IMG/VR virus record: IMGVR_UViG_3300044701_003563
Source: a virus
Strand: one strand, 5' to 3'
DNA length: 64,000 nucleotides
Shown: positions 244-55,569 of the stretch, in pieces
Numbering within the stretch: the first letter of the stretch is position 1
Layout: the number at the start of each line of letters is the position of its first letter
Made by a program: the position numbers and the translations under genes
The notes under the pieces: model-generated
What the model saw: the letters and a program-made list of their open reading frames with translations, nothing else
What the model was told of the DNA's origin: nothing
The model's database searches: none

Positions 244-3200
244 TTATGGATTTGATTTTTGCTGAGTTGCGTCTGATATAACTTTAGCAATTAATTTTGC
301 CAATCCAACTCTGTTATCGACTGGATCTTTTCCACCTGGAATCAACTTATATGCTTCCCCCTCAATACTTAAAAGTGACCTAGTTACGTTTTGTATATCT
401 CCCTCACCAGTTCCAGTTGATGGTGCATTTCCATCTACATCAACGGAAGCATAAATTACTGGATATCCCACCCTAGACCAAGTATTTGAATTTCCATACA
501 ATTCTGAACGATTTGCAGTTGTCCATGGAGATAAAGCAATGCTTGTGTTTGGAACATATGCTTCAGCAAAATAATCAATTAATTTTTTGCCATTAGGCAT
601 AATTGTTGATGGAGTTAACCCGATTCCTGTGGAAACATCCTCTAATTGGAATGAAAAAGTTGTGGCATTTCTTACTCTATAAGAAGTATATGCTATTCCA
701 GTTCCCTCTTCAACGTATGTAGTTGTATTAAATAATCTATTTAATCTAATAGTGACTATTTCCCCGTTTACAAATGGATGATTATCAGATCTAACGGTCA
801 AAACTGATTTATCATTTATGATTATTGCTTTATACCCAGAAGGAAGATCATCGGAAATAGAAGCAGTTATTGTGTTATCCGTTTGAATAACTATTTGATC
901 TATTCTACTTCCAAAAGCAAATCCAGGATTATTAGTTGCAAATGGAGGGATGAATTGTTGTGTACCTTCGTCAACTAAATCAAAACCACTATCGGTAGAA
1001 GAATTAGTATTAGCACGAATAACATTCAATGATTTATTAATTAATCTATAATCTAAATATGGAACACCTAAATTTGGATTACTTCTTCTTGAGGTTATAA
1101 AATATAAGTTGTCATTGGCCACAATATTTGAAAATACGGATTGATCAAATGCATCATTATCAAATATAATTGTAGCAATCCCACTCTTTCCACCCGTATC
1201 ATATAATATAGATGCTTCAAAGTTTGTTGCTGCCAAATCTCTATGTCCTATAGAAGAAGTGCTATAGAAAAATAGTTCTTGAATCTCTGCTTTCTTCTCA
1301 ATGTCTCCATAAGTATAAACTTTATCAATTTTAACAACGCCACCTTTATTTGCTTCTGCCAATGTAAGCATATCATGAGTTTGACTTAACAACCCTTGAT
1401 TTGGTGGTGGCCCAGAATCATTAACATTATCCCACACTTTTTCTAATCCAAATGGCCTAGATCTTCTAGAAATTCCTCCATCCAAATAAATTGTGGATAA
1501 TCCAGAGTTTACCAATGGGGCACTATCTCTTGATATTCCTCTAAATGTAAATCCAGTTCCAGAAATACTTCCACCAGAAATTACTTGTTCTATATAAATT
1601 AAAAGATCATTTCTAAGAGTATTTGTAGTTCCATCTCCAGATTGTCCCCCAAGAAGATTTCCAGGTATTCTAATAACATCATTTACATTATATAAAGATC
1701 CACCACTTAATAACTCAACTGTAGAATAAGTTGTAACCCCAGCAGTTCTTATTCCCCCTCTAACAATTCTGAATTGAGATCCAGAACCTGTTCCAGTTAT
1801 AATAGAAGCTGTTTTTGCAGATTCATAATCGAGACTTGAATCTGGAACAGAGATTGTGGGATTAGATGTTTGTCTTAAAATTGATAAGTTTGTGGATTGA
1901 ATTCCTCCATTTACATCAACAGATCCAATTTTTACTAATGCATCATTACGAGTTCCAGTTGTTCCACCAAGATTTGACCCAGGAATTAGATAAAGTTCAT
2001 TTGTTTTATAATTTGAACCAGTGGAAACTATTGATTGAATTGTATAACTAGAAGTTATGCCAGTTGCATTCCTACGAATTATTAAAGAAGCAGCGGCATT
2101 ACTATTTCCATTTGAAAGACCTATTCTTTGATTATAAAGTAAAGTTCCAGAAATCTTATAATCTGGCCTACCATTCAATGTAATTGGAGATGGATATGGG
2201 CCATTCATTCTAAATACTGTAGAAGTTGGTGCATTTAATACTGTCCTATTCCCATTAAATCCAGAAAGTGAAGAATTAGTAATTGTAACTCCATCTCCTT
2301 GATCCAATAAATGTTGCTGATATACAAAAGATCCATCGAAAGAAAATGTTGACGTAACTATTGGACCTCTATCAAAAATGACATAATATCCTTCAGTATC
2401 TATAGTTGTATAAGAAATAGATCCAGAAGGATTTTGTGTTCCAGAAAGTGCAAAATTTTCAGTGTCTAATATTTCTGAAATAAAGTAAGTTCCTCCAAAA
2501 TCACTCTGCAAAGTAATATTTCCAGTTATAATATCCACCTGAGTTGTACCGACATTTGCAGCAGTAAATCCATGCCCTCCATTTACACGAACAATTCTAT
2601 CAGAATTTGCTAATCCAACTACTCCATTTACATCTCCATTTGGAGAATAATCATTTGGATTTATTGTTGATGGTGATATTAATTCTAAACTATTTGAAGA
2701 AGTATATTTTGCATTATAATCTCCATCAAAATTATCAGTTCCAGTGATATTAATTGATATAATATCCCCAAATATTAATGGAAGATCAAATGTTAAATTT
2801 GAAAATTCTATAGAATTAAATCTAATTATTGCTGGAGAATTTCTAAGTCCAGCAGTATAACCAAGACCAGAATTATTCTCAACAGTAGAATAATTAGAAG
2901 GATTGATTGCTTCTTGAAGACCTACTCTTGTTAATCCTCCAGTATCAGTCCTCCAAGCAATTGTATATGGACCAGGAAGAGATAATTGTTGGGAAGATGC
3001 TGTATCAGTTCCATCATTATTTACAATATCAATTTGAGAACCAACTGCAAAAGAACTTGGAATTATATTTGAAAATGTTGCTATTGCTGGATAATTTTGA
3101 TAACCAACCAATCCAACAGTGGATGTTATTGTAAAGTTTGTAGAAGCAGTACTTACGGTATTACTAATATTAAATAAATTTGCGTCTACTGTAGTAACAG

Positions 3201-6200
3201 TATATAGTTTATTATCAAATCCTGTTGAAGTATTTTGAATTTTTATTGATTGCCCATCGATTAAACCATGTGCGGTGCCTGTTCTAATTCTTACACTAGA
3301 TCCAACTAATCCAGCAATTGATCCAGAACCTTCATTAATTCCAGTAAATGATACTGGATCGGTACGTGTAATTCCAAAAGTTGTGCTAGTATATCTTTTA
3401 ACAGTATAAGTTCCATTAAATGTGGTTGAATTTTGAATTCGTACTTGATCTCCAGTTTTGAAGTCTACATCAGTCCCTCCCACAACTCTTGGAGTTCCAT
3501 TATATGTAACTGTTGGTCCAGCATTTTTTAATGTAATTAATCCATTTGGATCAATTGTGGAATTCGATATTTCTGTGTAACTAGTTGGGTTTGTTTTACC
3601 ATTAAGAGTAAATCTATCATTATCTATTTTTGTAATTGTATAAGAACCATTAAAATTAGCAGTTCCTTCTATTTGAACACTTTGATCTGTTGTAAAGGGA
3701 TGATTTGTTGATGTGACAGTTGCTGGATAATTTTCCAATCCAGCAATTCCTCCCGTTGCATTTGCATTCGTAAAATCATCAGTGTATTGAGTCGAATTCG
3801 TACTGTTTAATATAAATTGAGTTGGAGAAACGTAAGTTATTGTGAATGTATTATTAAATATTCCTAAATTTCCAGTTGTATTTTCAATTTGAACAGAATC
3901 TCCATTAATAAAAGGATGATTTGAACTTGTAGTTACAACAGCATTTGCTCTCAATCCAAGAATACCACTGTTTCCTCTAAGACCAAAGTTTGTACTGGAA
4001 GTTGATGATGACGAACTTGATGGAATTGCAATGAGACCTGTATCGTTTCCAAAATTTGATTGAATTGTAAATAAATTGTCTGCAATTAAAGCATTTCCAT
4101 TTTGATCTAAAACATTTTGTATTCCAACAGTTGATCCAACAGGAATAGAATTTGCTCCAGAACTTACAGTAATATAATAATTTGCACCAATTAAACCAAT
4201 TGTTCCCCCAGCTCCTGGATTACTATAGTCTGCAGGATTGAGTCCATTATCTGTCAATAATATACTTGTTGGAGATATAACTCTGGCATTTCTTGCCGTA
4301 TTCGTGTTTAATGCAGTTTTTCCAGTGTCTTGCAATTTAACTTGAATGTTTGATCCATTGGGTCCAAAATACGGAGACGGGAAAGAATAACTATTCGTAA
4401 ATGATATAACTGGACCTATTCCTCTAACACCTATTCCTCCAGATGTATCACGTAATGCAAAATTAGTAGAGCTATTTGATGTAGAATTTAAACTAAGTAT
4501 ATTTCCATTTACATTATTAATAGTATATGTTCCATTAAAATTAGTAGTACCATAAATGTCAATTGATGCTCCATTGACAAAAGTATATCCAGATGGAGTT
4601 ATTGTTCCATGAGTTACTTTCAATGAATCTCCAACCAATCCAACTATTGTATTAGAATTTGCATTTGAAGAACTTACATATTCATTTGGATTTGGTGTAG
4701 TTTGATTTCTAAAACTATCAGAACCGAGAAGAATTCTTGTACTATCTAGAATTCTTGCGTTTGTATATGTTTTATTGAAGAACGAAGATGGAGAATCTTG
4801 AATTTTTATAGAAATTAAACTTCCTACTGATCCAAAAGAAGACGTAGATGTTACCGTAGCAATTCCAGAAATTGTATGAATGCCTATTTTGCCAGAAGAA
4901 CCCTGTAAAGCAAGTGTCGATGGCGTTTGATTTTCTTTAAGAATAAATGCATAAGGTTCCGTAAATGAAGATTTAATTCCAGAAATTACATATGCATCGT
5001 TATAAATTGCTGATTCTCCAGTGACTCCAAATACTGTAATTGCCATTCCAACTGACAATTTATATTCAGTAATTGACTGAGAAGCAGTGCCAGAAAGATT
5101 AAAAGTATTTCCAAAATTTGTAATTAAATCTGCTGCTGTAGATACAATGCCAGTTACAGAATCGGCAAGTCTAAAAGTATTAATTCCTGCCTGTGCTACT
5201 TGCCAAATTTTATTATAGACACTATTTTCATTTCCACTTATTGAAACTAATTGTCCATTGCTAAATCCATGAGAAGGTGCGTCTACAATTGGAATTAATT
5301 TGTTGACTATGTAATAACTTCCAGACGCATTTCCAAAAGCAACACTTCCACCTTGACTTGCAAATTCAAAAGAAAATCTATCTTGACCAATGCCAGCATC
5401 TTGTACACTTGTAACTGTAAGTCCATATCCCGTATTTGTATAATCAAACACAGTTCCAGTACCAAAAATATAAACAATATCACCATTTTGTAAATAATTA
5501 TCAAGATTTAAACCTGAACCATTCCCTAAAATTGTAACTAAATAACTAGCAGTTACTCCGTTATTATTAAATTGATTAAAACCTTGTGATGAATTAAGTA
5601 AATATGGATTTACATTATCTGGAGATACTTCTCTTAAATTATAAGCAATACTTGTAATTCCAACATTTCTGAATGTTACTGGTACTACTAATTCCAATTC
5701 TGATTGGTTATATCCTACAGTTGACCCAGATCCTATAGTCGTTGCTGCAAATAATTCAGTTCTTCCAGTATTATCAATTTTAATTTGAGTTGGACTTTCT
5801 ACAGATTTTACAGTAAAAGTTGAATTCCAATCTGAATCTGTTGTTCCTCTTATAATTATAGAATCTCCAGTTATAAAAGTATGATCTGCTGATGTTTGTA
5901 ATAATGCATCAGAACCAAGTCCAACATTATTATTAACCCCATTATCCAATTGAGTAATAATTAATTTTGCAGGTAAAGGATTCTGTACTGGCCCTGCACC
6001 AAGACCTGGAGCAGAAACTTCTATCTCATAATCACTCAATACATTAATAATAGAAAGACTTTGATTATCTAAAGCAGGTTCTCCAGTTCCTGCTACAAGA
6101 ACTTTTCCCCCAATCCCAATATTTCCAGGTAATGCTGCACCTGAAGGATTGAGAGTAATAAGACATTGATCATTTGCTGGATCATACTCAACTATAGTAT

Positions 6201-9168
6201 ATGCATCTGGATATGTAATAAAGGAAATTGCAAATGCTGTATATCCAATACTTACAATGTTTGGTGCAGTATATCCAATACTTACTACACTAGTACTTGT
6301 AAATCCAATATTTGTAATCGTAGATGTCGTGTAAGCAATTCCTGCAACATTTCCATGGGTGAATCCAGCTCCTGTAACAGAAAGTATAGTATATCCTATT
6401 CCAACTATATTGGAGGTAGAGTATGCAATACCCGTAGTGCTAGAAGTGATATTAGTATATGCAATTCCAGAAATATTAAATGAACTTTGAGCTAATCCTA
6501 TTATATTTCCAGTTGTATATGCAATACCAGTAATTCTTGCAGTTGTGTACCCTATTCCTAAACTAGTTCCTTTTCTATAATATACTGAACTTATATCAAT
6601 AGGTTCATATGAAAAAGTTGCAGTTTTTGGATAATATGCATTTAAAGGTACTTGATAGTCTATGTAATTTGTGGGCGTTCCCGATACCGAATAAGTATCT
6701 ATTATACCACCCGACAATACATTAGTTACTGTAATTGTTATATTATTTGCCGATGTTCCATCCAATTCCGTTCCAGATATTAATAATTTATCCCCATTTT
6801 CATAATTTGTTCCACCATTAAGTAAAGTTAAGGAATAATTATTATTATTGAATTCATTTTTTCTTACAGTAAATGTGGCATTTGTAGTCGTTCTTTCTGC
6901 AAAATTATCACTCAATAAAGCAGTTACAGTATATTCTAAAGGTTGCACACTTGTAATTCCAACTACAAGATTATTTTCTATATTATCTTCTCCCAAAGAA
7001 GATGCAGAAATTGTAAATTTATCTCCAATTCTGTAATCAGTTCCAGCAAATCCTGGTCTCACTTGTATGATGTATCTATCGTTTAATTTATCAATTTTAA
7101 AAGATGCTCCAGTTCCAACAGTTGTATCTTCAGTAACCGTATTGTTTTGTCTTGTAAATCCAGAAGTGGAATCAGTTATTGAATACTCTATTGATTTAAA
7201 ATAATTTGCGAATCTCCAAGTAGAAGGTGGATTTTGTGATGTTGTAAAAGTATAGGAATATTTTGATAGATTTGCATATATGTATTCTTGCCCTGCCTTT
7301 TTTACAAATACGGCATCATATCCATCATTGGATTCATATCCACTAATTCCGATAACTCTAAGATTTCTATATTGTACTTCTTCTTCTATCGTTCTTGTTA
7401 CTGTTTGAATTGGTGGTCTAAAGAATAAAGATCCTTCTTCCCAAACTTCCCGTCCTCCAAAGAAATATCCAGATCCGTTAAGAACGTAAGAATTTTCTTT
7501 AGATCCAGTTCCAGAAGCAGAATTAACGTCAAATAATAATCTAACAAAACTTGGATTTATTAAAGAAGTACTAAAATTTAAACTTCCGTCAGGAGTAAAG
7601 TTATTTGTTCCAACATTGGGATTGCCTAATATTAATCTGAATGGATAATATCTTCCTGAAGTAAAGTTTAAATTAGCAGATGTGACCGAAAAAACATCAT
7701 TTAAATCACTATCTGGATTCTGTAGTAAATTATCTCTTGTGCCAGAGTTATCTGGGCAAGTAATTGTAGAATTTGATACTGTATATCCACTATAAACTTT
7801 AGAATCTGGACCAAATCCGTCAATTCCTGTTGCATCGGATCCAATCCAAAAACAGCTAGTTCCAGTTGATTGAATTCTAAAGGTGAATGATCCCGATATC
7901 TGAGGAGCAAAGTATCCAACTATCATTATAGTATAATTGGATATATCAGATCTTAATCGATCAATTTCAAAAATTGGTCCCCAAAATCCACCCTTTTGAA
8001 TCGTAGAACTTAAATTTTGGGTTGCTGGTGTTATCTGAGAATTTGGAATTTCAATACCTGCATAAGATGGATCTGTATTAAGAACAGCAGTTCCTCCTCC
8101 AGTATATCCTTCATAAATGATTTTGGGTTGACCTCCCAAATCAGCTGCTGCAGTTGCTGTTGAATTGGGAGTTCCATTAATAAACCAGTTCATACCTGGA
8201 GCGTCTTCAAATTCTCCAGTTGTAGTATTACCTAATGGAAGTGGAATAGCTTTATTAGTAAACCAACTTTCAATAGAAGACTCTGGATCTGGAGAATCTG
8301 GATCGTCTAAAAAATATCCTCTATATCTTCTAACATAAAATCCAGAGGAATTGTATTTATATTTGTCAGTTGTATAACCAACATTATTTTTAGTAGATAT
8401 TCCAATACCTATTAAATTTGAAGCGGTATTTTCTTGTTCATTAGATGCAGCAATTACATATGTCGGTAAATTTCTTCTAATTGGAGTATTTAAAAATTGA
8501 CCAATATATGAAGTATTTACAGATCCTTCTGTTATATTATTAACAGAAGCATTATTGGATCCACTATAATAAAAAGACCAAATATTTCCGTGAACGTCTT
8601 CACTATACTGTCCTGGATTATCTATAGTATCAAACGAACTAAATCTTGTTGCTGTTGACTCACTTGAAACTTTTGATGCTATATTATATCTTAATGATCC
8701 AAGGTTAAAAACGCCCTCATCACTATTAATATATTGATTTTTCCAAAGGTTTTTAAAACTTCTTTCGTTGAAATAATTTGAATCGGCTACAATAAAATGA
8801 TTTGGAAAAGTCGTAGTTTCCGTGTTTAGAGTTAAAGATTGTGTAAAAGATTTTGATCTAAATGTTTGATCAATATACGTATATAAATTTGGTGATGATT
8901 GAAACTGAGCTCCTACTTTTAATGTATATAAGTCATTCTGAAGAGTTGATGGAAATATTCCATCATAAAACATAGAAACAGTTGATCCTACTGAAATATT
9001 TCCACCTGGACTAGTTCTGGGACTAGTATAATTACTAACTCCAGAGGAATCCAAATTCATTGAATAGGAAACATCAGTAAAAAATACTATGTTTACTCCT
9101 TCAGAAAATAAATTTCCTCTGAATAAAATAGGTGATAAATTGGCAACAGAAGAACCGTAAAAGGCCAT
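244..9168 (-). CDS. Giant virion structural / adhesin-like protein (2974 aa): VWA-like motifs, PA14-like domain and many small beta-sandwich repeats
   Basis: DxSxS MIDAS-like motif (FFTDVSYSM); PA14-like segment (YTIMIVGYFAPQISGSFTFRI...YYPFRLILGN); repeated HxFxxGDxVxI...FNGTYTI units; Ser/Thr/Gly/Asn-rich. Confidence 0.75.
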   Translation of the reverse strand: MAFYGSSVANLSPILFRGNLFSEGVNIVFFTDVSYSMNLDSSGVSNYTSPRTSPGGNISVGSTVSMFYDGIFPSTLQNDLYTLKVGAQFQSSPNLYTYIDQTFRSKSFTQSLTLNTETTTFPNHFIVADSNYFNERSFKNLWKNQYINSDEGVFNLGSLRYNIASKVSSESTATRFSSFDTIDNPGQYSEDVHGNIWSFYYSGSNNASVNNITEGSVNTSYIGQFLNTPIRRNLPTYVIAASNEQENTASNLIGIGISTKNNVGYTTDKYKYNSSGFYVRRYRGYFLDDPDSPDPESSIESWFTNKAIPLPLGNTTTGEFEDAPGMNWFINGTPNSTATAAADLGGQPKIIYEGYTGGGTAVLNTDPSYAGIEIPNSQITPATQNLSSTIQKGGFWGPIFEIDRLRSDISNYTIMIVGYFAPQISGSFTFRIQSTGTSCFWIGSDATGIDGFGPDSKVYSGYTVSNSTITCPDNSGTRDNLLQNPDSDLNDVFSVTSANLNFTSGRYYPFRLILGNPNVGTNNFTPDGSLNFSTSLINPSFVRLLFDVNSASGTGSKENSYVLNGSGYFFGGREVWEEGSLFFRPPIQTVTRTIEEEVQYRNLRVIGISGYESNDGYDAVFVKKAGQEYIYANLSKYSYTFTTSQNPPSTWRFANYFKSIEYSITDSTSGFTRQNNTVTEDTTVGTGASFKIDKLNDRYIIQVRPGFAGTDYRIGDKFTISASSLGEDNIENNLVVGITSVQPLEYTVTALLSDNFAERTTTNATFTVRKNEFNNNNYSLTLLNGGTNYENGDKLLISGTELDGTSANNITITVTNVLSGGIIDTYSVSGTPTNYIDYQVPLNAYYPKTATFSYEPIDISSVYYRKGTSLGIGYTTARITGIAYTTGNIIGLAQSSFNISGIAYTNITSSTTGIAYSTSNIVGIGYTILSVTGAGFTHGNVAGIAYTTSTITNIGFTSTSVVSIGYTAPNIVSIGYTAFAISFITYPDAYTIVEYDPANDQCLITLNPSGAALPGNIGIGGKVLVAGTGEPALDNQSLSIINVLSDYEIEVSAPGLGAGPVQNPLPAKLIITQLDNGVNNNVGLGSDALLQTSADHTFITGDSIIIRGTTDSDWNSTFTVKSVESPTQIKIDNTGRTELFAATTIGSGSTVGYNQSELELVVPVTFRNVGITSIAYNLREVSPDNVNPYLLNSSQGFNQFNNNGVTASYLVTILGNGSGLNLDNYLQNGDIVYIFGTGTVFDYTNTGYGLTVTSVQDAGIGQDRFSFEFASQGGSVAFGNASGSYYIVNKLIPIVDAPSHGFSNGQLVSISGNENSVYNKIWQVAQAGINTFRLADSVTGIVSTAADLITNFGNTFNLSGTASQSITEYKLSVGMAITVFGVTGESAIYNDAYVISGIKSSFTEPYAFILKENQTPSTLALQGSSGKIGIHTISGIATVTSTSSFGSVGSLISIKIQDSPSSFFNKTYTNARILDSTRILLGSDSFRNQTTPNPNEYVSSSNANSNTIVGLVGDSLKVTHGTITPSGYTFVNGASIDIYGTTNFNGTYTINNVNGNILSLNSTSNSSTNFALRDTSGGIGVRGIGPVISFTNSYSFPSPYFGPNGSNIQVKLQDTGKTALNTNTARNARVISPTSILLTDNGLNPADYSNPGAGGTIGLIGANYYITVSSGANSIPVGSTVGIQNVLDQNGNALIADNLFTIQSNFGNDTGLIAIPSSSSSSTSSTNFGLRGNSGILGLRANAVVTTSSNHPFINGDSVQIENTTGNLGIFNNTFTITYVSPTQFILNSTNSTQYTDDFTNANATGGIAGLENYPATVTSTNHPFTTDQSVQIEGTANFNGSYTITKIDNDRFTLNGKTNPTSYTEISNSTIDPNGLITLKNAGPTVTYNGTPRVVGGTDVDFKTGDQVRIQNSTTFNGTYTVKRYTSTTFGITRTDPVSFTGINEGSGSIAGLVGSSVRIRTGTAHGLIDGQSIKIQNTSTGFDNKLYTVTTVDANLFNISNTVSTASTNFTITSTVGLVGYQNYPAIATFSNIIPSSFAVGSQIDIVNNDGTDTASSQQLSLPGPYTIAWRTDTGGLTRVGLQEAINPSNYSTVENNSGLGYTAGLRNSPAIIRFNSIEFSNLTFDLPLIFGDIISINITGTDNFDGDYNAKYTSSNSLELISPSTINPNDYSPNGDVNGVVGLANSDRIVRVNGGHGFTAANVGTTQVDIITGNITLQSDFGGTYFISEILDTENFALSGTQNPSGSISYTTIDTEGYYVIFDRGPIVTSTFSFDGSFVYQQHLLDQGDGVTITNSSLSGFNGNRTVLNAPTSTVFRMNGPYPSPITLNGRPDYKISGTLLYNQRIGLSNGNSNAAASLIIRRNATGITSSYTIQSIVSTGSNYKTNELYLIPGSNLGGTTGTRNDALVKIGSVDVNGGIQSTNLSILRQTSNPTISVPDSSLDYESAKTASIITGTGSGSQFRIVRGGIRTAGVTTYSTVELLSGGSLYNVNDVIRIPGNLLGGQSGDGTTNTLRNDLLIYIEQVISGGSISGTGFTFRGISRDSAPLVNSGLSTIYLDGGISRRSRPFGLEKVWDNVNDSGPPPNQGLLSQTHDMLTLAEANKGGVVKIDKVYTYGDIEKKAEIQELFFYSTSSIGHRDLAATNFEASILYDTGGKSGIATIIFDNDAFDQSVFSNIVANDNLYFITSRRSNPNLGVPYLDYRLINKSLNVIRANTNSSTDSGFDLVDEGTQQFIPPFATNNPGFAFGSRIDQIVIQTDNTITASISDDLPSGYKAIIINDKSVLTVRSDNHPFVNGEIVTIRLNRLFNTTTYVEEGTGIAYTSYRVRNATTFSFQLEDVSTGIGLTPSTIMPNGKKLIDYFAEAYVPNTSIALSPWTTANRSELYGNSNTWSRVGYPVIYASVDVDGNAPSTGTGEGDIQNVTRSLLSIEGEAYKLIPGGKDPVDNRVGLAKLIAKVISDATQQKSNP

Positions 9169-9204: not shown

Positions 9205-12200
9205 TTATGATGTAGAATACTGACCGTATACTCCCAAAACATAAGAAGAACTTGATGTAAATGATCCAGAAGCATCACAGAAGAAAGTAAATCCTATAAT
9301 ATAAGAATCTGAAACACTTACTGAAGTAGGAGGTATATTTCCGTTCAGCCATCTCAAGTTTGATGCTGGAATGATGGTCGAATTTATTTGAAGTTTTGTT
9401 ATCAAATTGCTAGTCCCACTTACATTAAGAACGACAGTATAGTTGTATGTTCTATTTGGAGTAGTTGGAACTGATGTTATATTTAGGGTATCAACAGAAC
9501 CTATCGTTCCATCCACTCTGAATATTGGTCCATTAGCAAATGAAACTGATATTACGTTTGAAACTGTGCTGGATGTTGTATTAACAACATCGGAGATTTG
9601 GAAGAATGTGGAAATGCCAGTTACCTGATCTCCTGCCTTATTGAAAGGATTATACCCCAATCTTGCGGGTATATTTGTGTAGAAAGATCCTGGTCTTCCT
9701 GTTCCAGTTCCATCGCCAGGACCATCTAGTAATCCAGTAGAAATTCCAGCAATATATACCTGATTAGATGCATTTGTAATTCTGGATGGAATAGACGCAT
9801 TAGTATTTAAATCTTCAGGTTGTTCTCCCTGAACTCTTGAAGCATTTAAATTAGAAACTAAAACACTACTAGAAACTGTAAAGGGTGGTGTTGATCCATC
9901 ATTAACAGTAGATCTAAATCTTGTAGATTCGACAACATCTCTTGCTACAATTCCACCGTATACATTAAATGTTGTAGTTGCAGAACCTACTATTAAATCT
10001 GCAACTCTGTTTATTCCTGCATACCATATATATCCGAAACTATTGACATTTTGAGGAACACTCCACCATAAAACATTATTATTTCTTCCTACGGCATAGT
10101 TTGTAGCACTTGAAGTTAATTTTTGGTCATAGATTATTCTTGTTCCATTACTTCTAACTGCAAAAATTGGATCCCCAAGTCCCTGATTTGGAGCTGTTCC
10201 AGGAAGTTCTGTGCCAGTACCAAAATTAATTGGGAAAACGGGTGATTGGAATTTAATGGTTGCAATACCAACAGAGTTTAGGTCCTGTCCATATTCCGAA
10301 ATAACTTTAACACCAAATCCTAAAGATGAACCAACAAAGTTAATAACCTCTTTAGTTGCAAATGCTGGAGCGCCAGATGGAGTGAGAGTTGGAAAATATT
10401 CACCAAAATCGTTTCCAGTAACAATACCTACTTTGTTGGCAGCTCCTTGAGTTAATGCAAATGTAACTGTTGTTATTCCCGTTGATTCATTATATTGCTG
10501 CGTAATGTTTACATTATTGCCAGATTCAAATCTAAGAATTCTGGTTAATTCAGCATCAACTAATGCAGAGGATGTTACATCAACGCCATACAAACTGTCA
10601 TTTATCCATCCATATTCTTGCCATTTTATTTGATTATCTGTAGGATCTGTGGCATATACCCACCCAACATTACCTCCAATCTGAGGAAGTGCATTTAAAA
10701 CTCTATCTCCAACGTTTGCTGCAGTTGTTGGTCTTGTTGTCGATATTCCAATTTCTCTGGAAATATCCAAATCACCTCTAATATTCAGTTTTCTCAATTC
10801 TAATCCATTCTCTGAAGTGGAAGTTATCTTCTCATTAAATATTGTTGGACCATTAAATTCGGAAATAAGATTTGATTCTTTTCCTCCATTAACTTTAATA
10901 GATCTGTTTACAACAATTTCTTCTGGTGTAGTTATATTATATCCACCTTCAGAAGTTAATTCTAGAGGTTCTTCTCCAGTTACTGTTGGGATAGGAGACT
11001 CAAAAATCTGATCCTTTCCAGTACTTGTTAATTTTCTGTTATTATTATAAAAATCTCCATCACTATTCATTGCTGAATATAAGATAGTTCCTCCATCAAT
11101 TTTGGTGGATTGGGACAATATTACTTCTTGAGGACTTAATACTCTATCTTGTCTTTCGGGCAATGCAGTTGAATAATTACCTGGACCAAATCCAAGATAT
11201 TCAAAAGTATGTCCAGATGCACGAATAATTGAATTTCTTCTAAACTCGATTGGGAATACTTTAATTTTTTGAACTGTAGAATTCCTTTGATGAGTTTCTC
11301 TTTTAGTTCCAAGTAAAGCTCTAATAACACTAATACTATTACTTGTAACTCTTTGAGATATTCTCATTATCTCATTGTTAACCAATAAATAATCGCCAAG
11401 TTTTAATTCACTAATTAAAGTTGAGTTATATAAAACAAGAGGAGTGGAGTCACTGGAAGTGTTATTAAGTTGAGTACCTACATATCCAGTAAATTTATCA
11501 TAAATATACTTCAATCTTCCAGATGAGTATTCATCTCTTAAATTAATATCCCCTCCACTTGCAGCATAATTTACTGGAATTGCTTTAATAGTTCCACTAG
11601 TCGATTGTGAAGAATTTGATTTTCCTACATTAATTCTTACACTTAATTGACTATTAACTCTAGTTACAACAAAGTTTTTATCATTATAAAAACTATTAGT
11701 AGCTCCATAAAGTGATATTGTTGATCCAGATTTAAATGGATGTGTTGTAGTAAAACCAACAGTTCCTACACCACTAATTCGATCATAAGAGATCGAATTT
11801 ACATTTAACGCAGTTCCAGAAATATTTCCAATGGCATTATCAGATGCATCTCCAATTGAAGGTAAAACTTGAGTTAAAGTTTTTTGGGATTCCACTTCAA
11901 TTTGTTTGGGGAATCCAGTTTTAACAGAAGTAACAATATAATTACCATTATATTGATCATAAGTTTTTGATACTGATTTTACTGACGAAACATTAATTAC
12001 AATTCCTTGCGAATTATTAATATTTGATACCGTAAACAATGCTGAATTTGAATTTGTCCATGATGCACCTGTAGATAATCCTACAGCAGATAATGTGTTT
12101 CCTATTCCGTATGCACTTCCGCCATCTAATATAGTAACAGAATTTACAACCCCACTTGCATTAATATTAACAATTGCTGTTGCCTTTGTTCCCGTAGTTG

Positions 12201-15200
12201 AACCAGCGAATCCAACTAAAGAAATATTATAATATGTTCCAGGAACATAATTTTGTCCAGAATTGGTAATTGATACTTCTAGAATAGAATTTAAATTATG
12301 CTCTCTTGATGTATAAATTGTGTGTGAAGTTCCAGAGGAAGAACCGATATCGAAAATGTCAAACCCAAATTTAAGGTCTTGTAGATTTTTATAAAGTGTT
12401 TCTTTTGTTATGCTATTCTGGGGATCATTTATTGAAACTTGTCCGATAGGATCTGGCAATGCATAACAGAAAGATTCAGTTGGGTCTGAATTTGGATTAT
12501 CTCTATTTAATTGTGGGTAAAGATTTTGAATTGGTTGAGAGAATGATAACTCAGTAAATGGAGATACTGAAGGTGAATTGGAAGAATTTGTTAAGGTTAT
12601 ATGATAAATTCCATCTTGCCTGTCTTTTTCATAAGGTTGTATTTCTTCACTTCTAAAAATTTGATATGTATTTTTTAATTTTCTATTTACATATCTTGGT
12701 AAAGATTCTGGATCTCTTGTATTAATATTGTTATCAAATAACCCAGGATTAACTGGCAAAAGATAAGAAAATTCTCTAGAACTACTTACATCAATTACTT
12801 CAAATGTTCCATTATATCCTTTATTAAATTCTCCTTCAGGATTGTTGTCGGTAATAATATTATAAATTGAAACTTGAGAACCTTCGTTTAAGTTGTGGGG
12901 GAGTTCGGTCGTGACTGTAACAGTGTTAGATACCCAAACTGCATTTGAAATATATCTAAGATTTCTTAATTCAGTGGGGTTTGTCAAAGTTACCGATGCT
13001 TGTGGAAAATATTTTGATAATTCTACAACATCTGATGCATTTGTTGATGATGAATCTTGTAAAATATATCCATCCAAAGGAGGTCTAGAAGTAAATGTAC
13101 TGTCTTTTGGAAGAACATATCTAAATTTATAAATTTTATCATCATTAGACCTTTTATCTGGAGTTCTTTTTATAAAAGTTCTGGAAGAAACTACTTCTGG
13201 GAATGGTCCAGATGGATATAAGGACTGATATTTAGTAAAGACTGTGTTAGTCAATGGATTACATAAAATATACCACCCAGCTGTTTTTCCTCCTAAAGAT
13301 ACAACAGCAGATGAGTCAAATTTTAATGGACTTCCAGGATCATTTGGTTTTTTGTCTGTAACTCTACTAATAACATCTATTATTCCACCTTTATTATTAA
13401 AGACTACTTGCTCAGCACCATTAATAGCATCTTGTTGATTTGATGATAATTTGATAGTTCTTAATGAGTCATTAATTACATAATAAGTTTTTCCAGGGGA
13501 AATGCCATCTGGAAGTGATCCACTCTTTGGCACTAATGTAACAGATTCTCCTGGTCTAAATGAATGTTCAGAAATAAATTCTATTGTATTATTTACGATA
13601 GAATTGATGCCAACATTGCTTTGTCCTACTCTGTATGTTTTTTCTGCAACAATATTGAAAAGATCTGGATTGGCAGTAGTACTTTGAGTATCACCCATAA
13701 CAACGTCTGCGGTGAAAATACCCAGACCAGATGAAGGATCATTTATTTGAAGGTATAATTTTTCATTTTTTGAAGCACCAAATCTATATCCATTTAAAAT
13801 ATAATCTGGTGGGCTATTGATATCATTCTCATTGTAAATATACAATCTAGATGCGTTGTTGATTGTACGAGTTAATTGAACGTCTATAGGAACATACTCA
13901 AGAGTTTGCTCTTCAGAATCTATTTCTTTTGGTGCTACAATATGAGTAATATAACCGCAATCATCTCTTATGAAAGATGAATCTCTAAATCCGTTTGAGA
14001 CTAAAGATTTGGCTCCAAAGTTGGAGTTTGAGTTTGTAATTGAATGATCACCACCAGATTCTGCTAAGAAATGATTTGCAAAACCAATAGCAAATACAGA
14101 AACTAACTGTAAGAAAGCATTATTAGATGCTTTAATGTGATAGTTTTCATATGAAGGTTTAAATCTAGATAAGGAATTTGTATGTCCATTTGGTTCATTT
14201 GAAATATAAATTCCCTGTGCTTTATCATATCTTACGAAAGCTCTATCATCTTTTTGAAGTCCAATTCCAGTGAACTGTGCAACAACCATGCTTTGGAATC
14301 CTGTGGCATTTTTTCCATCGGCATGTAATCCACACATTCCATATACTGATCTAAGAGAACAGTTAAAAATATATGGAGATGCTGAACTTACAGTATCTAC
14401 AGTAATACTTACTCTTGCATTTGATGCATTGGGGTTTATTTGCTCTGGTACTGTTGCAACAATATATTTAAATGTTTGATTATCTACAACTTCAGAAACA
14501 GCATATTGTCCATTATAACCAGGCTCAGTAACTCCACTAATTTGTATAGCAGTATCTACACTTAATTCATTTACTTCTCTATCTAAAGTAACAGTAATTT
14601 CAGTTGTTCCTACTATTCCATTTCCAGATCTTATTTGACTTATTCCTACTTCAGATCCTCTAGAACCAACCACTCGGAATTCATCAACAACTGGTTCAAT
14701 ATCAACATCTGATGGATAGTCTGGGGATATTGTTCTACCTGCGCCATATCCTAATCCAATTTTTTCATAATACATTTGTAGATCAGTTCGATCTGTAGAA
14801 TATGTTAAAAAGTCATCTTCAATTTTAACCGAATTTATTCCATCCGCATATTCAAATACTGTTAATTTGTGGTGAGAGAAGTTTGGTACAGTTTGATTTC
14901 CAGTATAATCCGAAAAAATTAATCCATTAGGATCTCCATCTAAAACAGTAAACTGCCAAAAATAACAACCACCAGTTACTCTGAAAAGAGCAGTTCTTTC
15001 AATCTCATTATTTTCTGGATTTGGAACATATAGGGGACGAATTTTAGTTTTTCTAAGATCTAATCCCACAATAGATGTACCTCTTGGTACAATAACTCCA
15101 CCATAAACACTGTTAAATTTATAGAGATCATTTACTGAATCTAAAATATCAAAATTACTTTCAAAATCTAACTCTAAACTTGCATTGATATTTACCAATC

Positions 15201-15495
15201 CACTTCTGGTAGAAAATAAACTTGATCCAGTTGGTATATATCCTGGCCTGTTATCAATATAATGATCTCCTGGATATAACAAGATTGTAGTTTTTAAAAA
15301 TCTATCGTTTTTCTTTCCTCTTTGATAAGAAAATCTAGCTGCCTCAAGAAGTGCCCTTTGGATAGTTTTAAAGGGTCTAGTTAAAGAATTGCCCTGATTT
15401 TCTACACTATCTGTAGAGTCTAAACTATTTGGATCTACATAAATGATATTTCCCTTTACATTCTTCAGAAAATTGCTTAATCTAGAGAGACCCAT
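9205..15495 (-). CDS. Conserved cyanomyovirus large virion structural protein (2096 aa, fibre/baseplate-associated)
   Basis: N-terminus MGLSRLSNFLKNVKGNIIYVDPN...RPFKTIQRALLEAARFSY is typical of T4-like cyanophage structural proteins; beta-rich; late-promoter-like CTAAATA upstream (15526-15532). Confidence 0.8.
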   Translation of the reverse strand: MGLSRLSNFLKNVKGNIIYVDPNSLDSTDSVENQGNSLTRPFKTIQRALLEAARFSYQRGKKNDRFLKTTILLYPGDHYIDNRPGYIPTGSSLFSTRSGLVNINASLELDFESNFDILDSVNDLYKFNSVYGGVIVPRGTSIVGLDLRKTKIRPLYVPNPENNEIERTALFRVTGGCYFWQFTVLDGDPNGLIFSDYTGNQTVPNFSHHKLTVFEYADGINSVKIEDDFLTYSTDRTDLQMYYEKIGLGYGAGRTISPDYPSDVDIEPVVDEFRVVGSRGSEVGISQIRSGNGIVGTTEITVTLDREVNELSVDTAIQISGVTEPGYNGQYAVSEVVDNQTFKYIVATVPEQINPNASNARVSITVDTVSSASPYIFNCSLRSVYGMCGLHADGKNATGFQSMVVAQFTGIGLQKDDRAFVRYDKAQGIYISNEPNGHTNSLSRFKPSYENYHIKASNNAFLQLVSVFAIGFANHFLAESGGDHSITNSNSNFGAKSLVSNGFRDSSFIRDDCGYITHIVAPKEIDSEEQTLEYVPIDVQLTRTINNASRLYIYNENDINSPPDYILNGYRFGASKNEKLYLQINDPSSGLGIFTADVVMGDTQSTTANPDLFNIVAEKTYRVGQSNVGINSIVNNTIEFISEHSFRPGESVTLVPKSGSLPDGISPGKTYYVINDSLRTIKLSSNQQDAINGAEQVVFNNKGGIIDVISRVTDKKPNDPGSPLKFDSSAVVSLGGKTAGWYILCNPLTNTVFTKYQSLYPSGPFPEVVSSRTFIKRTPDKRSNDDKIYKFRYVLPKDSTFTSRPPLDGYILQDSSSTNASDVVELSKYFPQASVTLTNPTELRNLRYISNAVWVSNTVTVTTELPHNLNEGSQVSIYNIITDNNPEGEFNKGYNGTFEVIDVSSSREFSYLLPVNPGLFDNNINTRDPESLPRYVNRKLKNTYQIFRSEEIQPYEKDRQDGIYHITLTNSSNSPSVSPFTELSFSQPIQNLYPQLNRDNPNSDPTESFCYALPDPIGQVSINDPQNSITKETLYKNLQDLKFGFDIFDIGSSSGTSHTIYTSREHNLNSILEVSITNSGQNYVPGTYYNISLVGFAGSTTGTKATAIVNINASGVVNSVTILDGGSAYGIGNTLSAVGLSTGASWTNSNSALFTVSNINNSQGIVINVSSVKSVSKTYDQYNGNYIVTSVKTGFPKQIEVESQKTLTQVLPSIGDASDNAIGNISGTALNVNSISYDRISGVGTVGFTTTHPFKSGSTISLYGATNSFYNDKNFVVTRVNSQLSVRINVGKSNSSQSTSGTIKAIPVNYAASGGDINLRDEYSSGRLKYIYDKFTGYVGTQLNNTSSDSTPLVLYNSTLISELKLGDYLLVNNEIMRISQRVTSNSISVIRALLGTKRETHQRNSTVQKIKVFPIEFRRNSIIRASGHTFEYLGFGPGNYSTALPERQDRVLSPQEVILSQSTKIDGGTILYSAMNSDGDFYNNNRKLTSTGKDQIFESPIPTVTGEEPLELTSEGGYNITTPEEIVVNRSIKVNGGKESNLISEFNGPTIFNEKITSTSENGLELRKLNIRGDLDISREIGISTTRPTTAANVGDRVLNALPQIGGNVGWVYATDPTDNQIKWQEYGWINDSLYGVDVTSSALVDAELTRILRFESGNNVNITQQYNESTGITTVTFALTQGAANKVGIVTGNDFGEYFPTLTPSGAPAFATKEVINFVGSSLGFGVKVISEYGQDLNSVGIATIKFQSPVFPINFGTGTELPGTAPNQGLGDPIFAVRSNGTRIIYDQKLTSSATNYAVGRNNNVLWWSVPQNVNSFGYIWYAGINRVADLIVGSATTTFNVYGGIVARDVVESTRFRSTVNDGSTPPFTVSSSVLVSNLNASRVQGEQPEDLNTNASIPSRITNASNQVYIAGISTGLLDGPGDGTGTGRPGSFYTNIPARLGYNPFNKAGDQVTGISTFFQISDVVNTTSSTVSNVISVSFANGPIFRVDGTIGSVDTLNITSVPTTPNRTYNYTVVLNVSGTSNLITKLQINSTIIPASNLRWLNGNIPPTSVSVSDSYIIGFTFFCDASGSFTSSSSYVLGVYGQYSTS

Positions 15496-15734: not shown

Positions 15735-15811
<77 letters not shown>

Positions 15812-15886
15812 TGGAGCCCCCTATCGGATTTGAACCGATGACCAACGGTTTACAAAACCGTTGCTCTACCACTGAGCTAAAGAGGC
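15812..15886 (-). tRNA. tRNA-Thr(TGT), CCA encoded
   Basis: GCCTCTT...AGGGGGCTCCA; anticodon arm ACGGT-TTTGTAA-ACCGT; abuts tRNA-Pro with no spacer. Confidence 0.95.
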
Positions 15887-15970
15887 AATTGGGGGCGTCC
15901 GTATAAACTGGACCTTTTGTACTCCCCCTTTGTCTTAGGAGATTGCAACCGATTTCTCAGTTACTTGTAT

Positions 15971-15999
15971 ACTATAAGACACTTGTGGTTTTTTGTCAA
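15971..15999 (-). promoter_or_regulatory. Sigma70-type promoter for the Thr/Pro tRNAs
   Basis: TTGACA-N17-TATAGT. Confidence 0.8.
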
Positions 16000-16003
16000 G
16001 TCC

Positions 16004-16288
16004 TCAATCTTTTGGAACGAGGTCTGGGTAATCAACTTCAATTGGAAATAAACATGGGTGTGCTTCTTCTGCTATTAAATATGAAGAAGACATATAAAGA
16101 TCATGTGGTGTGAATACTTTATATTTATTAGCTTCCATCTCTAAAGTTGGATCCCAAAGAGAGATTTCTGGAATATCATCGAATGTATAAGGATAGTTTT
16201 CAATAAAATACATTTTAACAACGTATTTTTTTGATCCAGGTTCTTGTGGATCATACCAGCAAAAACAAGTACTTACTCGGTATATCAT
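16004..16288 (-). CDS. Hypothetical cyanophage protein
   Basis: 94-aa ORF preceded by T4-type late promoter TATAAATA (16313-16320). Confidence 0.7.
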   Translation of the reverse strand: MIYRVSTCFCWYDPQEPGSKKYVVKMYFIENYPYTFDDIPEISLWDPTLEMEANKYKVFTPHDLYMSSSYLIAEEAHPCLFPIEVDYPDLVPKD

Positions 16289-16312
16289 AAGATTCTTGGA
16301 TCTTATTTTAAG

Positions 16313-16320
16313 TATTTATA
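16313..16320 (-). promoter_or_regulatory. T4-type late promoter
   Basis: Exact TATAAATA immediately 3' of tRNA-Leu(TAA). Confidence 0.65.
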
Positions 16321-16321
16321 G

Positions 16322-16404
16322 TAGGACGAGGGGGACTTGAACCCCCACAGGCAATGCCCGACAGATTTTAAGTCTGGTGTGTCTACCGATTCCACCACCG
16401 TCCC
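16322..16404 (-). tRNA. tRNA-Leu(TAA)
   Basis: GGGACGG...TCGTCCTA; anticodon loop CTTAAAA; long variable arm. Confidence 0.93.
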
Positions 16405-16408
16405 GAGG

Positions 16409-16480
16409 TGCTTCTGCAGGGACTTGAACCCCGTTCACTCCGTTATAAGCAGAGGGCCTTAACCTATAGGCGACAGAAGC
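16409..16480 (-). tRNA. tRNA-Ile(TAT)
   Basis: GCTTCTG...CAGAAGCA; anticodon arm CTCTG-CTTATAA-CGGAG; T-loop GTTCAAGTC. Confidence 0.88.
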
Positions 16481-16497
16481 ATTTCTCGTATATGACA

Positions 16498-16526
16498 ATC
16501 ATAGCAGGTCTTGCTTTGATTGTCAA
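16498..16526 (-). promoter_or_regulatory. Sigma70-type promoter inside the tRNA cluster, embedded in an inverted repeat
   Basis: TTGACA-N17-TATGAT; TGACAATCA...TGATTGTCA palindrome. Confidence 0.75.
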
Positions 16527-16527
16527 G

Positions 16528-16608
16528 TGCCCCTAGTCAGATTTGAACTGACAAACCCGTAGGCGGTTGATTTTGAGTCAACTGTGTTTACCGTTTCACC
16601 ACAGGGGC
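16528..16608 (-). tRNA. tRNA-Leu(CAA)
   Basis: GCCCCTG...TAGGGGCA; anticodon arm GTTGA-CTCAAAA-TCAAC; long variable arm. Confidence 0.92.
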
Positions 16609-16684
16609 TGGTGCTCCTTGAGGGGATCGAACCCACCTGATACCGATTATGAGTCGGGTGCTTTCACCAGATAGCTAAAGGAGC
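16609..16684 (-). tRNA. tRNA with CAT anticodon (probably Ile2/lysidine type, possibly Met), CCA encoded
   Basis: GCTCCTT...AAGGAGCACCA; anticodon CCGA-CTCATAA-TCGG; C4-G69 and C5-G68 pairs as in TilS substrates; lacks the initiator 3 G-C anticodon-stem pairs. Confidence 0.88.
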
Positions 16685-25886: not shown

Positions 25887-28800
25887 TTACTGTCTTCTTA
25901 AATTATAAGAGTTGTCTGTTTGTTCAGGTTTTGCTCCTGATGATACTTTCATTTGCCCTCTAGAAGTATTCTGCTGTGGGACTGTAATATATTTAATCTT
26001 TTCTTGATAATATACTGTTCCAGATTCAAATGGATTTTCATAGTCTGCAAATTTATTTATTTGCTTTTCTTTAATATTAGATGATCCTATTTGACCACCA
26101 CCCTGCGCCTTTACAATTTTTGGTTTGCCCGATGGTTTTGCTGCAGATGGTTTTTTGGATTTATTTCCAAATCCGAAGAAAGATGAAACCGATGAAGCAA
26201 TGCTAGAAACAAGATTTCCTCCTGCCTTTTGTGCTTTAGCAATAGGACTTTTCTTTTCTTCTTTTGCTTTTTTCTTTGCAATTTCTGCTTGTGCTTTTTT
26301 CTCTTCCCTTCTTCTTGCAGTTATTCTTGCACCTTCACCACCTAATAAAGAATTAACAAACTTGTCAAAAATTGGACCAGGATCACCACCATCAACTGCA
26401 TTAACATGGAAAGATACGTGATCATAGACACCACCCTGCATACTGTCACTAGATCCAGAAGCACCCTGCCATCCAACAACTGTTCCTGCTGGGATTTTTT
26501 CACCATTTTTAAATTTCTTAAATGGTTTATTTCCATGTCCCATCATAACTTCAAACATTTTTCCAGTTCTTGGGTCCTTATAAAAATAAGATCCAACATT
26601 TCCAAATCCAGCAGAACCTTCTGCACCTTTATAAACTCTTCTTTGAGTGCCATCAACATCTATAGATTTCCTTCCAGCATTTCTTCCTCCTGGAATTTTA
26701 TCTAAGTAGACCAATTCATATGGGAAAGAAATTTCTACACCTCTATTTCCATATGGCCCACTCTTATCATTATCGCCAAAGCTTTTTCCAATTTCACCTC
26801 TTCTTCCAAACAATTCAAGGTCAGCACCAGTATCTTGACCATCGGTATTTGGAACTCCTAATCTTCCATATCTTTTATCCTTTGTTGATCCTGCAATCTG
26901 CTGATCCTTTTCAATGTCACCAGGATCTCCACCAGCTTCTGTGGGTCTTTCTCCATCCTTTGATTTTTCATCTCTTTCAAGTTTTGCTATTGCATTTGGA
27001 CTTGCATCAAATCCTTGCAACCTGCCACTTTTTCCAGTTCTTATAATTTTTGCTTCGTCACTTCTTCTCCATTGATTAATTCCCTTATCATGGCGTCCCA
27101 ATCTATTTTCAATATAATCAGCGAGTTCAGTGTAATCTCCTTTAGCCAATCCAGATTTAACTCTTTCAGAAACACCAGATGGAAGGCTTCCATAATTAAA
27201 TGCTATTGACATAAGAGGAATTCTAACATGTGCTGGAAGTTTATCTAAAGATTCTTTGCCCAATTGTTGAACAACTCTATCTTTATGCCTTTCCATATCA
27301 TGTTTTTTCAATGCATATGCTTGCTCTTTTGTAATTTTATCCCCTGCCTTTACTGGTCTTCCATTTATTTTTGTAGCACCAAATCCAATTGTCGGAACCC
27401 CCCATCCATAAATTGCATCTGGATATGCTTCAAGTCTAAGACCTTCATAACTTCCAAGTATATCTAAAGTTAAATCTTCTTCACCTTTTGATCCTGGTTT
27501 TGATTTTGATGGTTTTCCAGGTATCAATGTCTCAGTTGGCTCTGCTTCAATGTCTACTGGATCATTCCCAGGAGGGGCACCACCTCCCCCTCCACCACCA
27601 GAAGGGGCACCACCTCCCCCTCCACCACCACTTCCGCCTCCCCGAGAAGGAGACGTACTGTAATCAGTTACAGAATCAATTGTAGAGTCTGAAGACATTG
27701 TTGCTAAAGTATCTCCCCCAGAATCTTTATCATCACCTTTATAATCAAAGTGACCTCCATGAGATCCTGGGTAATCATTAACTATCCAACCATATGTCTT
27801 TCCATGTCTTCTCATCCATGGTTCTGATGTTCCATGAATATCTAAAGCGTTCCCTCCAAGATGATTTGAATTTGGAACTCCACCAACTTTCCTATTATGA
27901 GCAACACTTCTTTTTCCACTTGCAACGTCAGATCCCTTTACAGCACCTTTTGAGTCCTGCATCATTTCACCAAATGCTTTTATTCCACCCTTAGAAAGAA
28001 TTAAAGGTCTTCCATTACCATCAGTAACTCCTTTAATTGCAAATCCTCTTCCCGTTTGGGGGTGACTTGCTGGGATTACTTTTACTCTTTGATTCTTATC
28101 ATCTTCTTTTTCATCTTCCTTCTCATCTTCTTTTTCTGCCTTTGATTCTTCATTTTTGATAGCTAACTCAAGATTTGACGATGTTTCTTTTGATGAACTT
28201 GGATTGGAAGAATCAATTTCTTCTGCATGTTTTTCATCTGGATAATGCTGACTTAAATATGCTCCTCCTCTTGTTGTTTCTTGTATCCTTGAGATTAAAT
28301 CTGGAGCGATTTTATTTAGAGAAATTTTATTTTCAATTGAGTTAAGGGATTTAAAAAAATCAATTCCCAAAAGATTAACACTATCTTTATCTACGACAAA
28401 CTCACCTTCATGAAGTTGATAAGTTCCTTCCTTGGAAACAAAACTACCATGGAATGCAGATTTTAAAATATTAGTTGGATTTATTAATTTGTTATCTTGA
28501 TATGCTTGGAAATGCAAATGAGTTTGCATAAAATCAGGAGCGGATCCCAGTGGTATCAACTTACCAAGTTTTTGACCCGATTGGACTGTATCTCCTGGTT
28601 TTAATCCAGGTGTCATGTGCAAGTATGTTACTTTTAATCCACCTCCATGATCAATCGATAAGTTTGATGTATATCCAGACCTTTGATATGGATAATCTGG
28701 GGTAGAATTAATTACTTTTCCAGATCTATATGCAACTACTGGTATTTTAGGATCACCATAAGGTGGATTTTCAACAACATCAACTCCAGCATGTGGTCCA

Positions 28801-53203: not shown

Positions 53204-53231
53204 TTTACAAATCACTTATTTTTTAACTTAT

Positions 53232-55325: not shown

Positions 55326-55346
55326 ATCCTCCTCATTTATTTACAG

Positions 55347-55380
55347 TATTTATCTTAACACTTCTTAACAAAGAAGTCAA
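55347..55380 (-). promoter_or_regulatory. psbD promoter (sigma70 plus overlapping late element)
   Basis: TTGACT-N17-TAAGAT overlapping GATAAATA. Confidence 0.75.
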
Positions 55381-55393
55381 TGAGTATTAGTGC

Positions 55394-55516
55394 TCATCCC
55401 CAATAAATCTGACCGAGAGTGAACAGGACAAACACAAGGATCGTAAATACCATCATACCTACTCCTGCCCAGATTACCCAGGGTTCCATAGGTTCGTGTT
55501 GAGGATTATGAGACAT
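55394..55516 (-). CDS. Putative 40-aa single-transmembrane peptide between psbA and psbD
   Basis: MSHNPQHEPMEPWVIWAGVGMMVFTILVFVLFTLGQIYWG. Confidence 0.55.
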   Translation of the reverse strand: MSHNPQHEPMEPWVIWAGVGMMVFTILVFVLFTLGQIYWG

Positions 55517-55543: not shown

Positions 55544-55569
55544 AATTATATCAGTTATTCAGTTTTATA

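Follow-up and report, generated by a model that had tools for sequence, protein, structure and literature searches.

The subject of this analysis is a giant protein encoded on a virus sequence of 64,000 nucleotides from IMG/VR (record IMGVR_UViG_3300044701_003563), here called the window. Its open reading frame lies at 244–9168 on the minus strand and specifies 2974 amino acids (P0001; residue i starts at nucleotide 9168 − 3(i − 1)). The protein is probably a fibre-type structural protein of a T4-like cyanomyovirus with an arm built by recursive insertion. Fifteen first strands (s1–s15), stored as a decapeptide array, would pair in mirror register with fifteen later barrel bodies (b1–b15), strand s(16−k) with body b(k) at level k from the turn; array and bodies together are called the nest. 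Mirror-register nesting of the inner seven levels is supported by predicted structures and by mirror-placed insertions and deletions (indels) among homologs. Levels 8–15 would be nested like the inner ones, as count parity and the homology of the bodies suggest at the level of sequence.

In the proposed architecture, the central 1,500 residues would make up a single long arm, a series of small six-stranded barrels of the type found in the FCCH domain of E1 enzymes and in domain II of translation factors. After an N-terminal base, the chain would deposit one first strand per 10 residues, from s1 to s15, and turn at the tip with the sole contiguous barrel, that of s15 and b1. The return path would run through b1 to b15, with each body closing around the strand adjacent to it. 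The chain would pass twice through each junction between barrels, its N- and C-terminal parts would meet at the foot of the arm, and a two-barrel side branch built in the same manner would sprout from b3, close to the tip. Each 10-residue level would add no more than about 3.3 nm, so the arm would be a presumably stiff rod of roughly 40–50 nm. Because s15 with b1 would be the only barrel able to fold alone, folding should go outward from the tip.

Decapeptide array and barrel bodies

The decapeptide array occupies residues 848–999 (6172–6627, minus strand), as delimited by a position-specific score and by lag identity. At a lag of 10 residues the identity is 0.30, compared with 0.10 ± 0.024 for shuffled sequence. 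None of 10,000 shuffles reached 0.30, and further peaks stand at lags 20 and 30. The position-specific score picks out 11 strong units of the form xIxGIxYTxx (residues 868–979), spaced by 10 residues save for one 12-residue unit, and the four degenerate units at the ends (848–867 and 980–999) retain a hydrophobic residue at position 5 and tyrosine at position 7. A tandem repeat at the DNA level was looked for in the array and was not found, which implies that the array is old and maintained at the protein level.

Downstream of the array, an iterated hidden Markov model (HMM) search located 15 main-chain bodies of ~70–85 residues each within residues 1000–2343, from b1 (1000–1082) to b15 (2265–2343), with two weak-scoring slots filled in; two further bodies lie within the branch at residues 1166–1349. 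Body b1 (5923–6171; this and the following on the minus strand) makes with s15 a contiguous complete barrel in VIA-align superpositions and would be the tip of the rod. Next to it, b2 (residues 1083–1154; 5707–5922) is completed in the same superpositions by s14 (residues 980–989), with b1 looped out. The rest of b3 and bodies b4–b7 span residues 1350–1738 (3955–5121); the pairings s11–b5 and s9–b7 are taken from the models and the others from the register. Bodies b8–b15 (residues 1739–2343; 2140–3954) are of the headless type by HMM, and s8–s1 are their presumed partners. Mean identity within the family is lowest for b1 (25%), followed through 33% for b7 to 41–62% for most others.

The bodies appear to begin without a first strand. 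In canonical tandem arrays of this barrel (the unrelated proteins P0120, P0172, and P0053), ~20 residues separate one unit's end from the next His motif. Here the stretch before the His motif is ~15 residues and, as read from the alignment, holds two hydrophobic runs, whereas that of the canonical arrays holds three. The best-scoring bodies, b2, b8, b9, and b11, align to an HMM of the canonical unit from position 7–10, past the first strand; the remaining bodies start further along the profile or have scores close to zero. In sequence, the FCCH family PF16190 was matched at E 0.64 and 10.6 bits, below the cut-off of 29.5 (residues 1742–1795), so that membership is not supported at this level; the homolog cluster P0003 carries a precomputed PF16190 match.

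An earlier note on this DNA, made from the letters alone, had described both parts of the nest. Of its 15 units of ~10 residues at 6172–6630 (residues 847–999), the period-10 array was recovered, with only 11 units clear and four weak. Its count of about 15 tandem bodies at 2125–6170 (residues 1000–2348) agrees with the 15 found by HMM, and its description of these bodies as headless holds for the four best-scoring ones and is less clear for those that align later or score near zero.

Inner levels in structure models and homologs

Two AlphaFold2 models bear on the nesting. Model 1 covers residues 898–1586, that is strands 6–15 and bodies 1–5, and was computed from a 24-sequence alignment (mean predicted local distance difference test score, pLDDT, 72.9; predicted template modelling score, pTM, 0.51). 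Model 2 covers residues 848–2026 (1,179 residues, three recycles, mean pLDDT 67, pTM 0.40). The pairing of strands with bodies was read from the first and last aligned residues of VIA-align superpositions and from the confidence profiles, not from contact maps. For model 1, it was fixed in advance that only strands 11–15 should be ordered, with a boundary at residue 950. Residues 898–946 came out strandless with pLDDT 33–40; from residue 947 onward, pLDDT is 79–92 and strands are formed at 948–955, 958–965, 973–975, 978–985, and 990–998. The boundary at residue 947 fits the prediction, with the five partnered strands ordered and the five unpartnered ones disordered. Strands s9–s12, s14, and s15 form only where their partner bodies are in the modelled fragment.

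The FCCH fold was recovered by superposition on predicted model 1. Residues 214–292 of UBA6 align with model residues 80–258, which comprise s14 and b2, over 75 residues with a root-mean-square deviation (rmsd) of 1.8 Å, Z 10.7, and 20% identity; the FCCH domains of UBA6 (9qic and 7sol) and UBA1 (6dc6) together give Z 10.0–10.7 and rmsd 1.8–1.9, with 74–75 residues aligned within a 79-residue stretch. The barrel of s15 and b1 is matched by endosialidase and E1 FCCH barrels at 92–175 in model 1 and 141–226 in model 2 with Z 9.1–9.4, the endosialidase barrel reaching Z 9.1 in model 1. Deeper levels appear as widely split ranges in VIA-align, each of which holds about 70–80 aligned residues: s11 with b5 at 49–684/688 in model 1 and 99–735 in model 2, and s9 with b7 at 75–893 in model 2. 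Strand s13 is weak, with three residues in model 1, and the pairings s13–b3, s12–b4, and s10–b6 follow from the register. Domains assembled from distant segments that enclose complete copies are therefore predicted at more than one level, namely at seven levels and in the branch.

The branch occupies residues 1166–1349 (5122–5673, minus strand) within b3, after a short strand at residues 1156–1162, as located by VIA-align. It begins with its own first strand (residues 1166–1176), continues with an inner domain, and ends with most of the body of the outer barrel (to about residue 1368). The corresponding ranges are 269–471 in model 1 (Z 5.7) and 317/319–521 in model 2 (Z 8.7–8.9), with 79–83 aligned residues spread over about 200; model 1 gives the inner domain low confidence. 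The branch is inserted in the β2–β3 loop of b3, whereas the main nest is inserted in the β1–β2 loop. Among close relatives, the ~200-residue branch is present in one and absent from the other in P0007 and P0010 (94% identical) and in P0003 and P0004 (81%), with the array unchanged, and its presence also differs between two 13-level lineages, again at constant array. Gain or loss without change in the array is expected if the branch brings its own first strand. The low conservation of b1 and the optional nature of the nearby branch suggest that the variable tip and the branch may act in host contact.

Homologs provide a second line of evidence. A word-index search yielded 25 metagenomic proteins of full-length type (2629–3357 residues), and an exhaustive HMMER search with residues 860–1160 against 1.84 billion representatives added three members, P0029, P0040, and the 574-residue P0030, two of them full-length. 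That search of 1.84 billion sequences gave no new nest depths; its other matches are mostly DotG-type AGYSA proteins, with a few canonical barrel arrays. Between P0008 and P0013 (74% identical), the array differs by +20 residues and the bodies by +156, with no further indel of at least 14 residues. P0015 and P0007 differ by +20 and +163, and P0025 differs from P0018, P0020, and P0004 by about −20 residues in the array and about −150 to −160 in the bodies. With levels numbered from the turn, strands are gained or lost at levels 5–8 and bodies at b5–b8, in agreement to within one unit; in the P0015 event, both strands and bodies are added at levels 7–8. Indels at equal level from the turn fit mirror pairing and not same-order pairing. 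A tree of the C-terminal 620 residues places each of these three contrasts in a clade of its own, which makes them separate events or exchanges. Strand and body counts are balanced in 27 of 27 proteins, in classes of 13, 15, and 17 levels.

These results bear on the central proposal of the earlier note, in which strand i completes body 16−i. The models and the mirror-placed indels bear it out for the inner seven levels; model 2 does not close levels 8–15. The check that it had proposed, by AlphaFold models of fragments, gave support to the same extent, since levels 1–7 close in mirror register and s5–s8 remain disordered beside b8–b11. The equal gain and loss among homologs that it had proposed to test was found, two strands and two bodies changing together in three events. 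The two-domain nested branch that it had noticed in the third body is likewise recovered in models and homologs, at a corrected location in the β2–β3 loop.

Outer levels and competing explanations

Several results weigh against a fully nested arm in a phage fibre protein. Both models are of moderate quality and stem from a 24-sequence alignment. Order had been expected from s5 onward in model 2, which orders only s9–s15, with s13 at low confidence; s5–s8 have pLDDT 23–40 even though b8–b11 are present at about 60–80. Strands s1 and s2 (residues 848–867) are degenerate and are placed by no model. Prepending a decapeptide to its partner body brought no gain in score against the thin HMM of the canonical unit. 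A PHROGs search of the protein returned no family at E ≤ 0.01, and tblastn with the whole protein and with the N-terminal 840 residues found no match among 50,697 deposited phage genomes; no cultured phage was found to carry the gene. The stall of model 2 in the outer half may reflect the limit of what three recycles can do for a fragment of 1,179 residues whose strands are nearly identical, or a real difference of the outer half. Two further comparisons leave the matter where it stands. A two-chain prediction of residues 840–899 (s1–s5) with residues 1955–2346 (b11–b15), run without controls, gave an interaction prediction score from aligned errors (ipSAE) of 0.00–0.01, which speaks neither for nor against pairing. 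The length of the s6–s7 linker (10–15 residues) correlates with the b9|b10 junction, the one expected from the mirror register, at rho 0.72, a value that is confounded by phylogeny, affected by misalignment of P0025 and P0029, and equalled by other junctions (b12|b13 at 0.75, b1|b2 at 0.70, and others as high).

The disorder of s1–s8 in model 2 while b8–b11 fold, together with the degeneracy of s1 and s2, would be natural if nesting stopped after seven or eight levels from the tip. Residues 848–929 would then serve as a linker, either flexible or of another fold, and b8–b15 would be open five-stranded barrels or be completed in another way. Such a partial nest is unlikely, given that b8–b15 are of the same headless type as b2, which s14 completes in the model, and that eight strands are left for exactly eight bodies. 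Unlike a mere linker, s3–s8 are as well conserved as s9–s13 (59% mean identity). The P0015 event adds levels 7–8 and all 27 homologs are balanced, and the failure of AlphaFold2 falls at the longest sequence separations under a shallow alignment. On balance, we favour all 15 levels being real, in which case no self-nested protein known so far would be as deep, with 15 barrels compared with the six published.

Strands and bodies could also be partnered between chains, each chain's strands completing the bodies of another, so that the fibre would be a domain-swapped dimer or trimer. Trimeric fibres are common in phages, models of one chain are blind to the difference between intra- and inter-chain pairing, and count parity and correlated indels hold equally for both. 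The contiguous s15 and b1 nevertheless make a complete barrel at the turn, and the mirror register is natural for a hairpin of one chain, whereas a parallel swapped oligomer would need antiparallel chains; exchange of this kind is accordingly judged quite improbable. Least probable of all, and barely credible, is an array that folds alone as a β-helix or solenoid, as in pentapeptide or DotG/IcmE repeats, with the bodies as beads on a string. What speaks for it is a weak similarity to the PF25296 "Decapeptide" family (13.1 bits, E 0.09), a match to DotG in PDB entry 7muc (E 2.5e-07), and the precomputed PF25296 matches of homolog clusters P0015–P0017. The 13.1 bits are far under the Pfam cut-off of 45, and the DotG-type repeats among the matches from the 1.84 billion sequences consist of amphipathic and charged AGY[ST]Axx[LI]xx units without barrel bodies, which share only the period-10 G-Y-[ST]. 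In addition, unpartnered decapeptides are disordered in both models while partnered ones are ordered, strand and body numbers change together, and the bodies come without a first strand. Mirror-register nesting within one chain is the reading kept in what follows.

Gene context, known systems, and significance

The phage encoding the protein is a T4-like cyanomyovirus. The window carries psbA and psbD (54264–56682) and T4-type genes for gp32, gp48, a gp5-like hub, and a tail protein (phrog_350); DNA of the gp32 region is ~73% identical to that of Synechococcus phages S-SCSM1 and S-SM2. The nest gene lies in the tail fibre/baseplate module, and the protein has no match to a known phage structural family in PHROGs. 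Only 36 nucleotides separate it from the gene upstream on the same strand (9205–15495, minus), which encodes a 2096-residue tail fibre protein (phrog_529 tail fiber protein, 1295 bits). The pair is kept beside the distant homolog P0024, where the upstream gene encodes 2135 residues (metagenome contigs L001 and L002). BLASTP of the nest protein against its phrog_529 neighbour showed no significant similarity. The neighbour itself contains three isolated barrels of the nest type (residues 289–370, 847–931, and 1233–1317) without a decapeptide array. BFVD matches of the nest protein are cyanophage "fiber," "tail fiber-like," and baseplate proteins. The nest protein would be located in the virion and serve there as a fibre, possibly as the monomer that the earlier note proposed.

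Outside the nest, the N-terminal base contains a PA14/GLEYA-type sugar-binding domain at residues 412–523 (7600–7935, minus strand). The GLEYA match (E 3.3e-07) is 31 bits, above the cut-off of 26.2, and the PA14 match is 18.2 bits, below its cut-off of 24; this is the sole curated Pfam match of the protein, and no VWA domain is matched at E ≤ 1. Directly before the nest, sequence and family consensus define two copies of a ~75-residue module (residues 690–845; 6634–7101, minus strand) with the pattern G..Y..GD...I.G..L.G....NDL.I.V, and two similar copies follow the nest (1489–2031, minus strand). With modules on both sides, the foot of the arm would be flanked symmetrically. The C-terminal part includes a lone barrel of the nest type found by the iterated HMM (residues 2777–2860; 589–840, minus strand), inside which a decapeptide-like GIAYT motif occurs. 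ESM Atlas searches with the N-terminal 410 and C-terminal 415 residues gave scores below 0.9 and were uninformative.

Other features of the window are given for completeness. Six tRNA genes (Pro, Thr, Leu-UAA, Ile-UAU, Leu-CAA, and Met) are clustered just upstream of the fibre genes (15737–16684, minus strand). A 2,152-residue protein (25887–32345, minus strand) has Amidase_2, Hydrolase_2, Peptidase_M23, Peptidase_M15, and phage lysozyme domains in series; for a T4-like cyanophage, five different peptidoglycan-hydrolase domains in a single protein of the virion module make an unusually rich set. Beside it, a 1,920-residue protein (32364–38126, minus strand) holds a GH19/chitinase-like endolysin segment at ~residues 910–1066, the remainder being without assignment. 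A 763-residue protein (50924–53215, minus strand) combines a methyltransferase with two glycosyltransferase-type domains and adjoins a phrog_2599 gene and psbD/psbA.

The closest published parallel is Si3 of the cyanobacterial RNA polymerase β′ subunit (RpoC2), in which sandwich-barrel hybrid motifs (SBHMs) are recursively inserted, as determined by crystallography and cryo-EM (PMC10895346). A 2026 ECOD-wide survey of 2.7 million classified domains called it "six-level nested," the extreme (PMC13114784). Si3 and the nest protein are alike in that one small β domain type is inserted into its own copies, domains are formed from distant segments, and an elongated arm has both chain ends emerging at its foot. 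They differ in fold, which is SBHM in Si3 and an FCCH/EF-Tu-domain-II-like barrel here, and in depth, with six levels published for Si3 and seven modelled or 15 inferred for the nest protein. Unlike Si3, the nest protein appears always split after the first strand, its N-halves reduced to a regular 10-residue repeat. Si3 is an insertion in an enzyme, whereas the nest protein is of phage particle type and varies in depth by paired two-level steps. SBHM and RNA polymerase chains are absent among the 50 best VIA-align matches of either model, which are FCCH and EF-Tu domain II-type barrels. Si3 is treated here as an analogue and not a relative.

Single barrels are matched best by the FCCH domain of E1 enzymes (UBA1 and UBA6; PF16190), with Z 9.4 in model 2. 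FCCH is itself an inserted domain, and barrels of its type also occur in phage proteins, namely in the K1F and phi92 endosialidases and in the C-terminal domain of the T1 tail tube. In E1 and these phage examples the barrel is contiguous, whereas 14 of the 15 main-chain barrels here would be split after strand 1. At the level of sequence, the sole PDB match is DotG/IcmE (PF25296; 7muc), which shares with the nest array a period of 10 and a glycine, an aromatic residue, and serine or threonine in each unit. It differs in motif and chemistry and lacks accompanying bodies, while the nest array lacks charged positions. True PF25296-like arrays, such as those of P0028, P0031, P0065, and P0081, look different, and the nest array does not belong to that family; the DotG/IcmE decapeptide is a look-alike and not a relative. 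In their own right, P0028, P0031, P0038, P0065, and P0081 are giant metagenomic proteins of up to 3,663 residues with dozens of DotG-type AGY[ST]Axx[LI]xx decapeptides. Nothing relevant was found in the literature on nested or recursive insertion in phage fibres, on FCCH in phages, or on decapeptide repeats of phage fibres. The principle of recursive insertion is published; what sets the nest protein apart is its proposed depth and the split right after strand 1 that yields a decapeptide repeat.

Domain insertion is usually one level deep. Seven modelled to 15 inferred levels of one barrel type in a phage protein would extend the six-level limit, and the puzzling decapeptide repeat would be explained as a store of detached first strands. 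The arrangement also provides a testable rule, that strands and bodies are equal in number and change at mirror positions, which holds in 27 natural relatives. For the annotation and modelling of giant phage proteins, it would mean that cutting domains along the chain gives wrong fragments.

If all 15 levels are true, 14 barrels can close only after residues 100 to 1,500 positions downstream are made, and folding must start at the tip and zip up toward the foot of the arm. The protein would then be a natural system for long-range ordered folding, with bearing on how very long-range contacts form, and would suggest a way to design stiff rods of tunable length from a single chain, both ends leaving at one place. 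Arm length would evolve only by paired, mirror-placed modules of strand plus body, giving 13, 15, or 17 levels. Such a system would also bear on the variation of fibre length and tip decoration among cyanophages of the ocean, and through it perhaps on their host range.

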